A stretch of 64,000 nt of DNA from Candidatus Poribacteria bacterium (GTDB taxonomy: Bacteria; Poribacteria; WGA-4E; PCPOR2b): NCBI GenBank assembly GCA_965116925.1, contig OZ220744.1, forward strand, positions 1,728,001-1,792,000, written 5' to 3'. This document shows positions 40,660 to 47,680 of the stretch, in pieces (position 1 is the first letter of the stretch; each line of letters begins with the position of its first letter). The translations under genes were made by a program, and so were the position numbers. The notes under the pieces are model-generated. The model was not told the DNA's origin and searched no databases. It saw only the letters and a list, made by a program, of their open reading frames with translations.

Positions 40660-41310
40660 CTATTGTCTTAACTCTTGGGCAGTGCCGGTTTTCAGGACTT
40701 TATAGCTGCACACCGAATCCCCGGAGGGCATGTGACATTCTCGTTCAACTGGCACATCGAGTAGCCGCTTCAACAGGGACAATTCGAGTTGACAGAGTTG
40801 GGGATATTTCTGTGCAATAGATTCAAGGGCGCAGTTGTGTTCTTTAAGGATATAGGCGCTTGGGGTTTCCGTAATTTCGACCTGATAGCCCTCTTCATCC
40901 AAAAACGCGGCAAGTATTTTAATCTTTTCGGCTAAACTCTTACCCTCGATATCGTCGAGACACATCGTGACCTTTGCTTCCATCTGATATTCAAGGAGTT
41001 GGTTGACCTTTTCTGCGCCGTCAATTACCACCAAGGCATCCAAAGTGCCCAGTGCGAATCGTGGGTAGTCGTTCGGAAACAGACTCTCCTTTGCCTCCGA
41101 GGTGAGTTTATATATGTAGACAGGTCTGCCCCGGCTAATTTTTTCGCGATAGTGTTGGATGTAGCCTTCCCGCTCTAGGATAGACAGATGTTGACGCACT
41201 GTCATCGAATGAAGGTCTAACTGCTTCGCAAGTTCACCGGCTGTCATACCGTTATTTTTTTTCAAAAGTTCGACGATTGCGCCGCGTGTGTCTTTCGGTA
41301 CTGATTTCAT
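40660..41310 (-). CDS. SufR-like HTH regulator with C-terminal Cys cluster
   Basis: TVRQHLSILEREG..RGRP; EHNC-x12-C..EC..GDSVCSY. Confidence 0.85.
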   Translation of the reverse strand: MKSVPKDTRGAIVELLKKNNGMTAGELAKQLDLHSMTVRQHLSILEREGYIQHYREKISRGRPVYIYKLTSEAKESLFPNDYPRFALGTLDALVVIDGAEKVNQLLEYQMEAKVTMCLDDIEGKSLAEKIKILAAFLDEEGYQVEITETPSAYILKEHNCALESIAQKYPQLCQLELSLLKRLLDVPVERECHMPSGDSVCSYKVLKTGTAQELRQ

Positions 41311-41490
41311 GGTTTTACCTTCCCGGCTTTGGCAGCGAACACGCCTTAACTCCTGCGTATTACTATGTCTCCAAAATTCCCTGATTAGGCAAAAATATTG
41401 GCTAACAAGCCTTCCCAGTACAATTCTGGTAAGATTATATCAGAAAAATAGCACATTTACAAGTCAAAATAGGTTTTTTAAGTTATTTAC

Positions 41491-41520
41491 TTGACAAAAC
41501 ATAAAATATCGTGTTACTAT
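41491..41520 (+). promoter_or_regulatory. Sigma70 promoter of the sigma factor / nfuA genes
   Basis: TTGACA-18bp-TACTAT with TG; a divergent TG-TATAAT lies on the minus strand near 41434. Confidence 0.65.
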
Positions 41521-41589
41521 TCCACCAATTCGATGCTAAACCCTGTTACGATACGTTAGTTTAACAGCCTTCTTAGGAGAGCGAGGTAA

Positions 41590-42576
41590 ATGACAACAAG
41601 GGCAAATGAAATGGTCGGTGGAACGTTCAACCGTAACCTTGTTGAAGCACCGATCGAAGATACAGAGAGCTATGAAGGTAACAGCGAGTGGGCAACGCTG
41701 TCAGAAGATGAGACACGAACGCTTCAAATTGATGCGTTAAGCACTTGGCTGCAGAAGGTTTCAACGCACAAACTTCTGTCTAGGGAACAAGAGGTAGAGC
41801 TTGCCAAGCGGATCGAGCAAAACGATGAAAGTGCCCGCGATGAGTTGGTCCAGGCGAACTTACGCTTAGTGGTATCAGTCGCGATAAAATATCAAGGACA
41901 TAATGTTCCCCTCGAAGATCTTATTCAAGAGGGAAATATCGGGTTGATGCGTGCAGTGAGTAAATTCGACCATCGGAAGGGATTTAAGTTTAGCACCTAC
42001 GCCATTTGGTGGATTCGGCAGGCAATCATGAGAACCCTCGATAACTGTTCGCGTTCAATCCGGCTACCGTCTTATGTCGTCGCGAAGGCGAGCAAGTTTG
42101 ATTCGGCTTATGCGGATCTCAGCCAAACGCTTCACCGTGAACCCACAATCGAGGAATTATCCGAGGTGCTTGAGTTGACGGATAAACAGATCGAAGATTT
42201 GTTGGTTCTCAATTCGGGGACGGTCTCGTTGGAGTTACCCCTCAATGATGAAAAGCACGCAACAACCTTGAGCGATTTGATTGAGGATCCGAAAGCGAAC
42301 CCAGAAACTGGTCCGATTGCGAATCTGGTCGACGGCGATTTAGTGGACACACTCCTCAGCAAATTAAAAGTGAGAGAGCGGGAAGTGATTAAGATGCGCT
42401 ATGGGCTTGAAGATGGGGAAGAAAAGACTTTGCGTGAAATTGGAGAGAAGATGGATGTCACTAGGGAACGGATCCGACAACTGGAAATTGAGGCGATCGC
42501 TCGTATAAAACGTCTGTACGACGAGGCGGGGGAACTTCGGCTTCCGAAAGAGGCATCAAGCTGTCCGGCTGCGTAG
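41590..42576 (+). CDS. RpoD/RpoS-like alternative sigma70 factor
   Basis: [54 protein letters not shown]; no region 1.1. Confidence 0.95.
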
Positions 42577-42601
42577 TATCTACCAACACTAAGGAGAAGA
42601 A

Positions 42602-43234
42602 ATGAAGAGTATATTGAATAAATTAAAACAGAAACAACCTCAAACTGTAGAGGGGTCCACACTACTTACTGTCACTGAAGCTGCCAAAGAGAAGATTCAA
42701 TCGGTGATTGAAGACCAAGGGATGGAAGTTGAAGGATTGCGCGTTAGTATCAATGGTCGTTCCGCATCAGCGTTTGAGTATGGTCTGGGTCTCGAAGTTG
42801 AACCCAATCCAGATGATGTCGTGGTTGACTGCGGAGATTTTAAGGTTTTGGTTGATCCGGAAAGCGCAAAAAACCTAAAGGGAGCAACCATCGATTATGT
42901 GGAAGACCTGAATTCGAGCGGTTTCAAGGTTGATAACCCGAACACGCCAACATGGGATAATCCCAAAGCCCAAGCGATTCAGCAACTCATCGATGAACGG
43001 ATTAATCCCGCGGTCGCATCGCACGGTGGGCACATCGATTTGCTGGATGTTACAGATGATTCAATCTACATCCACATGGGGGGCGGCTGCCAAGGGTGTG
43101 GGATGGCAAATGTCACCTTGAAGCACGGCATTGAGGGGATGATTCAAGAGCATTTCCCAGAAATCAAGCATATTATTGACAGCACCGACCACGAATCCGG
43201 TACGAATCCCTACTATGAACCAAGTAAGGGGTAA
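42602..43234 (+). CDS. nfuA: Fe-S carrier NfuA (degenerate A-type domain plus NifU domain)
   Basis: LTVTEAA..GATIDYV..GFKVDNPN; INPAVASHGG, GGGCQGC. Confidence 0.9.
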   Translation: MKSILNKLKQKQPQTVEGSTLLTVTEAAKEKIQSVIEDQGMEVEGLRVSINGRSASAFEYGLGLEVEPNPDDVVVDCGDFKVLVDPESAKNLKGATIDYVEDLNSSGFKVDNPNTPTWDNPKAQAIQQLIDERINPAVASHGGHIDLLDVTDDSIYIHMGGGCQGCGMANVTLKHGIEGMIQEHFPEIKHIIDSTDHESGTNPYYEPSKG

Positions 43235-43294
43235 GCGACCAGCCCGAACACAGTCATGGCACAGATCCGCTTTCACTTCTTTAAGGAGTTGGTC

Positions 43295-43972
43295 ATGTCC
43301 AAGCGTCGTCTCATCTGTTACACCATAGCGTTAGCTGCGTTTTTTAGTGCCTATGTGGGATATAAGCTTTACGAAAGCCGCACTCAATCAACAAGGACAG
43401 CGACAACAAACCAGTTGGATGCTAGCGTAGGGCTTGGCTCGATGGACCGTGCATTTTTACAGCGACAGGAATCTGTCAGCCAACTGACAAGGGGGATTGC
43501 AAAACGATTTCCCTCGTTGAAACTTCCTGTATGGACATATACACCCGAGAAATTAGATAGCAGCACTGTTGATTCAGTGAAAGCTATTGCTTTAGTGAGC
43601 GGGGTCGTCGAGTTTCACTCAACTAGGCTACCTGACGCAAAAGCATACCGACTGCCGCTACCAGCAGAAAAGACACTTCTCGCGGGGGACATAATCAGCG
43701 CTCAAGAGGTAATTTATTTAATCTTCACAACACCCGAAAACACGCCCGAATTTCCCCCTCCAAGTTTCCACGAGCTTCAAAGTCCGTCTGATGCTTCAAT
43801 TCCTTATCCACTGATTGCGAAAGCCTTTGATTCACCAAATGACGCTGCTCTAACCCAACTCAGAGATTGGATAGAATCGGTAGGCGGAGCAGCTCGCGCA
43901 CAATCGTTACTTGAGGCAGCGGGACTATCGGATTCTATACGGATTGAAACAGCGACTATTTTCCGTCAATAA
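43295..43972 (+). CDS. Hypothetical N-terminally anchored protein
   Basis: AAGGAG RBS, single N-terminal TM. Confidence 0.7.
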   Translation: MSKRRLICYTIALAAFFSAYVGYKLYESRTQSTRTATTNQLDASVGLGSMDRAFLQRQESVSQLTRGIAKRFPSLKLPVWTYTPEKLDSSTVDSVKAIALVSGVVEFHSTRLPDAKAYRLPLPAEKTLLAGDIISAQEVIYLIFTTPENTPEFPPPSFHELQSPSDASIPYPLIAKAFDSPNDAALTQLRDWIESVGGAARAQSLLEAAGLSDSIRIETATIFRQ

Positions 43973-44037: not shown

Positions 44038-44071
44038 GTAGGGGCAGATTAACGTATCTGCCCCTTTTTTT
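44038..44071 (+). repeat. GTAG REP hairpin with T-tract (possible terminator)
   Basis: GTAGGGGCAGAT-TAACGT-ATCTGCCCCT followed by a T run. Confidence 0.6.
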
Positions 44072-44084
44072 AAAGGTCAAATTG

Positions 44085-45545
44085 ATGATGAAACGTCCGG
44101 GCGCAATATTACTCATTTCGTGTTATGAACTGGGACACCAACCTATTGGTCTTGCCTCCCCGCTTGGGTTTCTTGAACGTGCTGGATATGTGCCAGACGT
44201 GATGGACATCGCTGTTGAAACCTTAGATGTGGAAAAAGCTGCCCGTGCGGAGTTTGTTGGGATTTGTGTGCCGATGCACACCGCCCTCCGTCTGGGCGTC
44301 CATGTTGCAACCCGTCTTCGCAGAATCAATCCAACCTGCCATATCTGTTTCTATGGACTCTACGCTTCATTGAACGCTGAATACCTGCTCAAACATCACG
44401 CCGATTCGGTCATCGGTGGTGAATATGAGACACCACTAGTCAAGTTGATTGATTCTTTTGCAGCTGGGACACCTGTAGAGATAGCCGGTGTCCTCCGACG
44501 TGACGGTGTCGAATCGCTTCAAGATACCCCTCAATCCAAACCCCTTCTGAAACCTTCACACAATGCCGTGCCAAGTCGAAAGCGATTGCCGTCGCTTGAT
44601 AGGTATGCACGCCTTGAACAGGATGATGTTGCACACCTTGCCGGTTATGTGGAGACAAGTCGTGGCTGCAAACACCTCTGTTTCCACTGTCCTATCCCGC
44701 CAGTTTATGAAGGGAGATTTTCCGTTGTGCCGAAGGAGATTGTACTGGCGGATATTCGAGCGCAGGTTGATGCGGGTGCGGCTCACATCACATTCGGCGA
44801 TCCCGATTTCCTTAACGGTCCCAAACACGCACTCCGGATTGTTCAAGCTATGCACGAAGCGTTCCCAAACCTGACCTTTGATTGCACAACTAAAATCGAG
44901 CACCTCCTGAAGCACCGTTCCATCCTATCTGAACTCCGCAACTGCGGTTGTATATTCATCGTTTCCGCTGTCGAATCGCTTAATGACACGGTGCTTGACA
45001 ATCTCCAGAAAGGGCACACACGCGCCGATGTTTTTGCCGTCATCGATCTTTTGAAGGAGGTTGGAATTGCTTTGCGACCCTCGCTTGTCCCGTTCACACC
45101 GTGGGAGACACTCGATAGCTATCTGTATATCCTCGACTGTGTTGAAAACAGCGGGCTAATCGATTACATTGATCCAGTGCAGTACACCATTCGGTTGCTT
45201 GTTCCGCCCGGTTCTTCCCTGCTTTCCCAACCCTCTATTCAACCCTACCTTGGGGAGCTCCATCAGGAATCTTTCACTTATCTTTGGACACACCCGGATC
45301 CGCGAATGGATGAACTCCACAAAGCGGTCACTGTTGCCGTAGAGAGTGCATCACAGATTGGTGAGGATACATTCGTAACCTTCCATCGGGTGCGCAACCT
45401 TGTGTATGCTGCAATCGGTAGAGCAAAATCTTCCATTGTGTTCCCAATGGGTTTTGAATCTGACCGAAAGCGACCGCCGCGCCTGACGGAAGATTGGTTC
45501 TGCTGAGCGGAGCCAACGCAGGGTCAGTTAGACCCGCTCACCTAA
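44085..45545 (+). CDS. CUAEP-tail radical SAM selenoprotein (B12-binding-like N-terminus); Sec at UGA 45504-45506
   Basis: ISCYELGHQP, SRGCKHLCFHC; readthrough gives PRLTEDWFC-U-AEPTQGQLDPLT-stop. Confidence 0.92.
45504..45540 (+). promoter_or_regulatory. Bacterial SECIS-like hairpin
   Basis: GGGTC-AGTTA-GACCC upper stem-loop, loop 19 nt after the UGA with G at position 2; TGAGC/GCTCA lower pairing. Confidence 0.75.
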
Positions 45546-47116: not shown

Positions 47117-47680
47117 ATGAAAATCTATACCAAAACTGGAGATACCGGGGAGACAGGACTGTACGGTGGGGCGCGGGTGCCTAAAGACGCACTGCGTGTT
47201 GAAGCGTGTGGCACAGTTGATGAACTCAATGCCTGGATCGGGTTCGTGAGATCTCAAATTCAGGACACTGAAATTGGTGTTATCCTCCATCGCATCCAAA
47301 ACGAACTCTTTGATATTGGGGCGGATCTCGCAACATTAGACACGCACCCGAAAGCGGCGAGTCTGAGAATTCCGCCAACCTTGACCCTCGAACTGGAAAG
47401 CGAGATCGACCGGTTTGAGGATCAGCTCCCACCGCTGAAAAACTTCATTCTGCCCGGCGGCTCAACCGTTGGTGCAGCGGTTCACCTCGCCCGAACTGTC
47501 TGCCGTCGTGCTGAACGGTGTGTTGTCACTCTTGTCAAAACGGAAGAAGCAAATCGAGAGGTGCTGATTTACCTGAACCGGCTCTCCGATCTGCTATTTG
47601 TACTTGCCCGTTTGGTCAATCATCGGTTGGGTGAATCGGAGCCGCTTTGGGAGTCGCAAACAAAACGCACAAAATCCTAG
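47117..47680 (+). CDS. pduO: ATP:cob(I)alamin adenosyltransferase, PduO type
   Basis: KIYTKTGDTGET, GTVDELN, FILPGG, RTVCRRAER, YLNRLSD. Confidence 0.95.
   Translation: MKIYTKTGDTGETGLYGGARVPKDALRVEACGTVDELNAWIGFVRSQIQDTEIGVILHRIQNELFDIGADLATLDTHPKAASLRIPPTLTLELESEIDRFEDQLPPLKNFILPGGSTVGAAVHLARTVCRRAERCVVTLVKTEEANREVLIYLNRLSDLLFVLARLVNHRLGESEPLWESQTKRTKS

Follow-up and report, generated by a model that had tools for sequence, protein, structure and literature searches.

Selenocysteine Recoding at the 3' End of the Gene

The locus described here raises the question of whether the TGA at which gene callers end a radical SAM enzyme gene is a stop or a selenocysteine codon and, in the latter case, what an enzyme with a Cys-Sec tail may do. 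The gene is located at 44085..45545 on the plus strand of the window (the whole stretch of 64,000 nucleotides that was analysed). It starts with the ATG at 44085, and its table-11 open reading frame closes at the TGA of 45504-45506, after ...RLTEDWFC; past this codon the frame, just as the earlier note had read it, continues with GCG GAG CCA and stays open until the TAA of 45543-45545, giving the tail WFC-U-AEPTQGQLDPLT and a protein of 486 aa with selenocysteine as residue 474. The readthrough extension fits the gap left for it, finishing 6 nt before 45552, where the convergent gene pepP has its stop. The hairpin claimed by the same note, GGGTC (45521-45525), AGTTA (45526-45530) and GACCC (45531-45535), was located exactly as described, at 45521..45535 of the plus strand, inside the coding tail and with its loop 19 nt past the UGA.

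Folded alone, this hairpin is only modestly stable (z = -2.62 in a 31-nt window, -1.23 in 57 nt and -0.68 in 87 nt), so the case for a SECIS element rests on comparison and covariation. In 29 distinct sequences from relatives, 97.2% of the 145 cells of the five-pair stem pair, three of the five pairs change on both sides, and the covariation score was reached by none of 500 shuffles of these sequences, all of which are kin; slid partners, used as a control in the same alignment, pair in 5-67%. A longer hairpin, pairing the UGA itself, is absent from the consensus fold. A sharper control than covariation among kin is provided by distant homologues: of at least 588 loci, spread over many phyla, the best 80 were compared (42 of the 80 span 15 kb or more). 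The UGA position, which the earlier note had proposed to inspect for cysteine codons, is occupied in these 80 loci by TGA (62) or by TGC/TGT (14), with homology continuing beyond it, or is cut off (4). At least four of the five stem pairs are kept in 59 of 61 TGA alleles vs. 1 of 14 TGC/TGT alleles, five loci being left out of this count (the four cut-off tails and one more that was too short); in other words, the hairpin tracks the TGA allele.

The genome to which the window belongs (6.47 Mb, single contig, with the nearest named homologues belonging to Candidatus Poribacteria) was also searched for the selenocysteine machinery, as suggested by that note, and selA, selB, selC and selD were all found. 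The selA and selB genes, both over cut-off, are clustered with selC, i.e., tRNA-Sec(tca), at G000:C1:2373929-2377461 on the minus strand; selD, over cut-off at 6,018,631, has an in-frame TGA of its own, and the stem after it carries a loop of the same CAGTTGG type. A genome scan for such stem-loops matched 18 of 27,503 candidate TGAs; this gene and selD are among the 18 by construction, as the pattern was drawn from them. Among the carrier genomes tested, selB was found in four of five with the TGA allele vs. one of five with the Cys allele. A second probable selenoprotein of this genome is a thioredoxin-fold open reading frame with a weak ResA match only (L136:1206-1823, minus strand; G000:C1 near 4,721,121), which reads FWRGAY-TGA-PKD and has a 7-pair stem with a CAGTTGG loop after the TGA. 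RNA-library contigs over the region are uninformative on transcription, since their depth is flat on both strands and in intergenic DNA alike, and they may represent DNA.

The alternative, a genuine stop at the TGA and a protein with WFC as its C-terminus, draws on the databases: 109 of the best 120 protein matches end at W[FY]C as called, 9 go on to CCAEP (one of these seen in part only) and 2 end otherwise. However, the W[FY]C ends are gene-caller truncations, and the databases appear mostly to truncate the Sec form: the enzyme family is carried by 32 of 41 related genomes, each with one TGA inside the match, and all 30 loci examined from relatives read W[FY]C-TGA-AEP in frame; homologues ending at the cysteine with no conserved AEP, which the earlier note had named as an argument against itself, were not encountered among these 30. 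Taken together with the cysteine codons at the same site in 14 of 76 distant loci (from the best 80 of at least 588), the hairpin that follows the TGA allele and the complete Sec machinery, this leaves a true stop extremely improbable. The comparison of sequences indicates that the apparent stop almost certainly encodes selenocysteine, and the proposed recoding with its SECIS element is upheld. As for the word "hidden", which had been applied to this selenoprotein, it is right for gene callers only, since the family has a curated entry as a (seleno)protein already; the recoding itself was known, and it corrects no more than a 13-residue truncation by gene callers.

Enzyme Family and Predicted Structure

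The protein scores 692 bits against the NF040546 model of radical SAM enzymes with a CUAEP/CCAEP tail (cut-off 500), over profile positions 1-467 of 468, and carries the C-[U/C]-A-E-P tail of the family as WFC-U-AEP, so the family assignment made earlier stands. Judged from its sequence, it is an ordinary member of a catalogued, uncharacterised (seleno)protein family. The available part of bioRxiv 2022.07.06.499078 names this family as uncharacterised and its CU motif as rare, which agrees with the earlier remark that its reaction is not established; no characterisation was found in the literature on CUAEP/CCAEP tails, ArsL, the aminocarboxypropyl (ACP) radical derived from SAM and the partner genes, with subscription papers mostly outside this search.

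The radical SAM domain is recognised by Pfam (PF04055, 50 bits vs. a cut-off of 29.5), and the CxxxCxxC motif of its [4Fe-4S] cluster (C195, C199 and C202; 44667..44690, plus strand) is invariant in 98 rows of the family and in 3 ArsL-type rows. The N-terminal B12-binding-like Rossmann domain (residues 10-121; 44112..44447, plus strand) scores 32.1 bits with PF02310, exactly at the cut-off, and its alignments to solved structures miss the cobalamin ligand loop; cobalamin binding is given here as putative. The AlphaFold model, built from 101 sequences, has a mean pLDDT of 95.4, and its C-terminal tail is ordered (pLDDT blocks of 94, 88, and 87). Its top solved matches in Foldseek are the radical SAM enzymes AprD4, TsrM, OxsB, and MgmA, at 14-18% identity, and there is no ArsL structure among the PDB matches listed. 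In one family member, P0129, a CCAEP enzyme is fused to a MerB organomercurial-lyase domain, this being a single sequence.

Relation to ArsL

The likeness to ArsL-type enzymes that the earlier note had pointed out is borne out by the ArsL model NF040542, which is the next-best family (333.3 bits, under its cut-off of 450), and by 33% identity to an ArsL-family protein over 425 columns. Cys473 and Sec474 (codons TGC TGA, 45501..45506, plus strand) align with the CC of the ArsL tail RCCLKC, the third cysteine of which is absent here. Alignment of 98 family rows with 3 ArsL rows showed D239, F242, T268, H273, A295, E297, P339, W340, and Q366 to be invariant in both families and H65, H201, D241, K270, and H311 to be family-specific and different from ArsL (His65 is conserved in 92% of the family and replaced by Phe in the 3 ArsL-type sequences), which suggests that the chemistry may differ. 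In a quick tree of 74 sequences, ArsL and the NF040546 family group apart from three outgroups with an SH-aLRT of 95, the outgroups being long-branched B12-radical-SAM or MiaB-like proteins and the tree search a quick one only. P0229, a long-branched protein with a CCAEP tail, joins ArsL in this tree (SH-aLRT 96), which may be taken as a hint that ArsL arose within the NF040546 family. P0245 is a GNAT-ArsM-ArsL triple fusion.

ArsL splits SAM into MTA and an ACP radical; to form the As-C bond it requires its tail (bioRxiv 2024.02.01.577332). According to the accessible portion of bioRxiv 2026.04.29.721666, it forms an Fe-ACP species and, as mass spectrometry of the intact protein and of fragments shows, holds arsenite by all three tail cysteines; replacement of a single one of these by Ala is reported to abolish its activity. 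ArsL has been described as the sole CxxxCxxC enzyme making an ACP radical. Its gene sits in an As(III)-induced arsQML operon (PMC8552651, available text). Methylated arsenicals are also accepted, the mutant "MCCA" being the best catalyst on methylarsenic (PMC13598754, in the portion available); we read this name as two of the three tail cysteines retained, which the review does not spell out.

The proposal of the earlier note that As(III) is bound by the Cys-Sec tail is plausible by analogy with ArsL; it finds no support in the genomic context, and the tail has two donors vs. three in ArsL. In the best 80 of at least 588 homologous loci (42 of the 80 span 15 kb or more), arsM is near the enzyme gene in one, and BLAST with Acr3 and two further genes of one acr3 ars locus found these in none of the 80, the matches being methyltransferases only. 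Among 251 Acidobacteriota genomes, arsM is present in 31 of the 41 with the enzyme and in 131 of the 210 without it, which is no enrichment in carriers (p = 0.11). In this genome arsM sits 2.6 Mb from the enzyme gene and acr3 was not found, nor was any ars gene identified among the neighbours scanned with NCBIfam and Pfam. Overall, the arsenic context of the family is weak. The enzyme family is present in 20 of 20 genomes of the genus, this one included, and such near-universal retention looks like housekeeping, not like antibiotic production.

Gene Neighbourhood

The recurrent neighbour of the family that is found in the window is a gene of an NfuA-type Fe-S carrier with A-type and NifU domains (42602..43234, plus strand), located two genes upstream of the enzyme gene and being the only NifU-domain gene found in this genome; a SufR-like gene, scoring below cut-off, lies further out. 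Within 40660-43234 this regulator points away from an alternative sigma-70 gene and nfuA, and each strand has promoter-like sites at 41434-41520; the order sigma-nfuA-radical SAM recurs in the genus. A 10-bp hairpin with a T run just upstream of the enzyme start (44040..44072, plus strand), terminator-like by consensus match only, may separate the enzyme gene from the sigma-nfuA unit. The 238-aa open reading frame at 43256-43972 (plus strand) has a membrane-like segment at its N-terminal end and matches neither Pfam nor NCBIfam; only a part of the relatives have it at this place, between nfuA and the enzyme gene. On the other side, 1.6 kb downstream, there is a gene of PduO-type cobalamin adenosyltransferase (47117-47680, plus strand), which is probably incidental, being near 1 of the 80 homologues. 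The same frequency (1 of the best 80 of at least 588 in each case) led us to reject pepP, the sigma factor, the SufR-like gene, and the 238-aa frame as partners, along with pduO.

In the same 80 loci the enzyme gene has nearby a NifU-domain gene in 23, DUF169 in 19, yggX in 16, and an ATP-grasp L-amino-acid ligase within 8 kb in 28; at least one of these four is near in 56. Over 140 loci, the enzyme has an NfuA-type gene as its neighbour in 31 and yggX in 45, with no locus showing the two together, and the choice between them partly follows lineage. In Chloroflexota (L167-L196, L083-L130) the gene immediately ahead of the radical SAM gene is yggX in 25 of 30 loci, and the latter gene usually has a formyltransferase-like gene as its divergent neighbour. 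NfuA was rejected as a dedicated partner, as it is found in 40 of 41 relatives, including 8 of 9 without the enzyme, i.e., it is a housekeeping protein. According to the part of PMC8593673 that is available, NfuA works for LipA and MiaB, two radical SAM enzymes that donate sulfur, and the roles of low-molecular-weight thiols overlap with those of Nfu and YggX. Of the thiol biosynthesis proteins searched for in five carrier genomes, GshB was over cut-off in none and BshC in two; BshC was not found in the genome studied here.

A Co-inherited Ligase

The ligase has its orthologue in this genome at G000:C1:1483150-1484397, 289 kb from the enzyme gene, and the two are co-inherited although unlinked here. 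In four groups pooled (664 genomes), 137 genomes have both genes, 3 have the enzyme alone, 21 have the ligase alone and 503 lack both, a co-occurrence that Fisher values overstate, since the genomes are kin and many of them incomplete. Given in the same order, the numbers are 32/0/0/9 for the 41 relatives, 2/0/0/119 for the phylum of a Nitrospira genome, 40/1/5/205 for Acidobacteriota (one of the ligase-only genomes, G188, is unpublished) and 63/2/16/170 for Chloroflexota. The pair is thus found in 16% of the sampled Acidobacteriota, 25% of the sampled Chloroflexota and most relatives among Poribacteria, and among these relatives joint absence is seen in at least three separate lineages. Of five long matches, P0249 was kept as the sole clean ligase-enzyme fusion; in P0280, P0281, and P0283 the tail is lost or stretches are out of frame, which points to joins by frameshift or assembly, and P0282 looks like a chimera.

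In 20 loci taken from 19 of the ligase-only genomes (L197-L216), the ligase adjoins an NfuA-type gene 18 times, often on the opposite strand; one of the 20 holds a cut-off piece of the enzyme gene, and a profile search of five of these genomes found no enzyme orthologue. The ligase has the domains ATP-grasp_4, ATPgrasp_N, and LAL_C2, and its nearest solved relative is BL00235 (3VOT, E 8e-66), which makes Met-Gly and Met-Met, as stated in the part of PMC6920838 available; methionine, in our inference, shares the ACP skeleton. As for DUF169, it is found in 25 of 32 carriers and in none of 9 non-carriers among the relatives (a query with a single protein missed the genes of four of the 25) and is a partner of the enzyme in a subset of genomes; here it lies 3.2 Mb from the enzyme gene, and the literature on DUF169 gave no function. 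The FIST gene adjoining the ligase was discarded as a partner, having no match in other loci. The presence of the enzyme and the ligase in the same genomes across four bacterial phyla makes it likely that they form one undescribed small-molecule pathway. Neither this ligase nor the connection of the family with Fe-S carrier genes had been noticed in the earlier note.

Proposed Reaction and Its Alternatives

We consider the best explanation to be an ArsL-like transfer of ACP to a soft atom held on the Cys-Sec pair, methylarsenite leading among the acceptors, with subsequent ligation into a dipeptide, and give it a probability of roughly one in three. Its first step, reading of the downstream hairpin by SelB with insertion of selenocysteine, is practically assured from sequence and comparison. 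That the enzyme works with one ATP-grasp L-amino-acid ligase is very probable, the co-inheritance being observed and the functional link deduced from it. The [4Fe-4S] cluster would then, somewhat more probably than otherwise, cleave the C-gamma-S bond of SAM to give MTA and an ACP radical or Fe-ACP, by analogy with ArsL; NfuA or YggX would serve to keep this cluster loaded. Only tentatively do we propose a trivalent organoarsenical, e.g., methylarsenite, as the acceptor, converted directly to arsinothricin, to which the ligase would couple a second amino acid; methylarsenite leads as a single acceptor because it needs just two chalcogen ligands and the tail has two donors. The 33% identity, the aligned CC/Cys-Sec tail, the grouping with ArsL in the tree and the ordered tail of the AlphaFold model speak for the ArsL-like transfer. 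The single MerB fusion speaks for arsenic. The performance of the "MCCA" mutant on methylarsenic (PMC13598754) likewise favours arsenic and the products of BL00235 (PMC6920838) the dipeptide step, in both cases as far as the available parts of these sources go. On the other side stand the residues H65, H201, D241, K270, and H311, which differ from ArsL, the housekeeping-like retention in the genus and, with respect to arsenic, the three tail cysteines of ArsL vs. two donors here, the single arsM among 80 loci, the lack of arsM enrichment in carriers and of a detectable acr3 in this genome. Nor does arsenic chemistry explain why the ligase is beside an NfuA-type gene in 18 of 20 ligase-only loci.

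Two readings are close rivals of the methylarsenite one. The same ACP transfer could be directed to sulfur or selenium carried by the Cys-Sec tail, in the form of a persulfide or of a small Fe-S centre that NfuA reloads, in which case the enzyme and the ligase would make a homocysteine-type thiol or selenol dipeptide serving iron/Fe-S homeostasis in the manner of glutathione or bacillithiol. We regard this as rather doubtful, even though the NfuA-type and yggX neighbours (31 and 45 of 140 loci, never both), NfuA beside the ligase where the enzyme is missing, the SufR-like regulator and nfuA upstream of the gene, and the failure of both GshB and BshC to exceed cut-off in this genome all point to it. 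The ties of NfuA to LipA/MiaB and of thiols to Nfu/YggX (PMC8593673) are of the same kind, and the ACP radical of ArsL readily gives homocysteine sulfinate with dithionite (bioRxiv 2024.02.01.577332, bioRxiv 2026.04.29.721666), these sources being cited from the parts available. However, NfuA is general housekeeping, its alternation with YggX tracks lineage, and BshC is present in two of five carrier genomes tested. Homocysteine, besides, can arise from SAH, with no radical chemistry needed.

It is likewise unlikely, in our estimate, that the enzyme performs a canonical 5'-deoxyadenosyl radical reaction or a cobalamin-dependent methyl transfer on an organic substrate, with Cys-Sec as a redox or metal site. 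Nearly every radical SAM enzyme generates the 5'-dA radical (bioRxiv 2026.04.29.721666, accessible portion), the B12-binding-like domain reaches the Pfam cut-off, His65 takes the place of the Phe of ArsL-type enzymes, and the top Foldseek matches are AprD4, TsrM, OxsB, and MgmA. These matches are, however, only 14-18% identical vs. 33% for ArsL, of which no structure is among the PDB matches listed, and the tail motif is common to ArsL, where the substrate binds to it.

Regardless of whether methylarsenite is the acceptor, the chance that the enzyme and the ligase act as a two-step pathway making a new ACP-derived dipeptide, either organoarsenic (arsinothricin-amino acid) or a homocysteine-type thiol or selenol for Fe-S metabolism, is in our opinion slightly below even. 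If true, it would be a selenocysteine-dependent radical SAM reaction, of which none characterised was found in the literature searched. The ArsL-like transfer would add a common organoarsenic pathway in case arsenic is the acceptor, and possibly a new low-molecular-weight thiol in case it is sulfur or selenium. The enzyme family being a widespread sister of ArsL, it is the reaction that matters, and co-inheritance names the second enzyme for a reconstitution, which opens the reaction to a direct test; for expression, a natural CCAEP homologue has no need of the Sec machinery.

Comparison with Known Systems

With the rest of the NF040546 family the protein shares the full-length match, the B12-like domain, the CxxxCxxC motif and the WFCUAEP tail, and nothing was found to set this copy apart except the location of the ligase and DUF169 genes elsewhere on the chromosome. 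The ligase has the same domains as the L-amino-acid ligases of the BL00235/BacD/RizA type, with 3VOT as the best solved match, but scores far under the cut-offs of the named families BacD and DdaF. Other proteins with a Cys-Sec motif are SaoL and HgcA, in which the CU dipeptide is proposed to contact a heavy-metal atom (bioRxiv 2022.07.06.499078, available part). The dipeptide is common to all three, the heavy-metal contact being a proposal. The folds and contexts of SaoL and HgcA are presumably unrelated to those of this enzyme. With ArsL the enzyme shares its architecture, many invariant residues of the barrel and a vicinal Cys-Cys/Sec pair near the C-terminus; it differs from ArsL in having two tail donors instead of three and an insertion of about 50 residues, made up of two helices and a linker, ahead of the tail, and its gene, in contrast to arsL, lies outside any arsQML/ars operon and travels with an L-amino-acid ligase.
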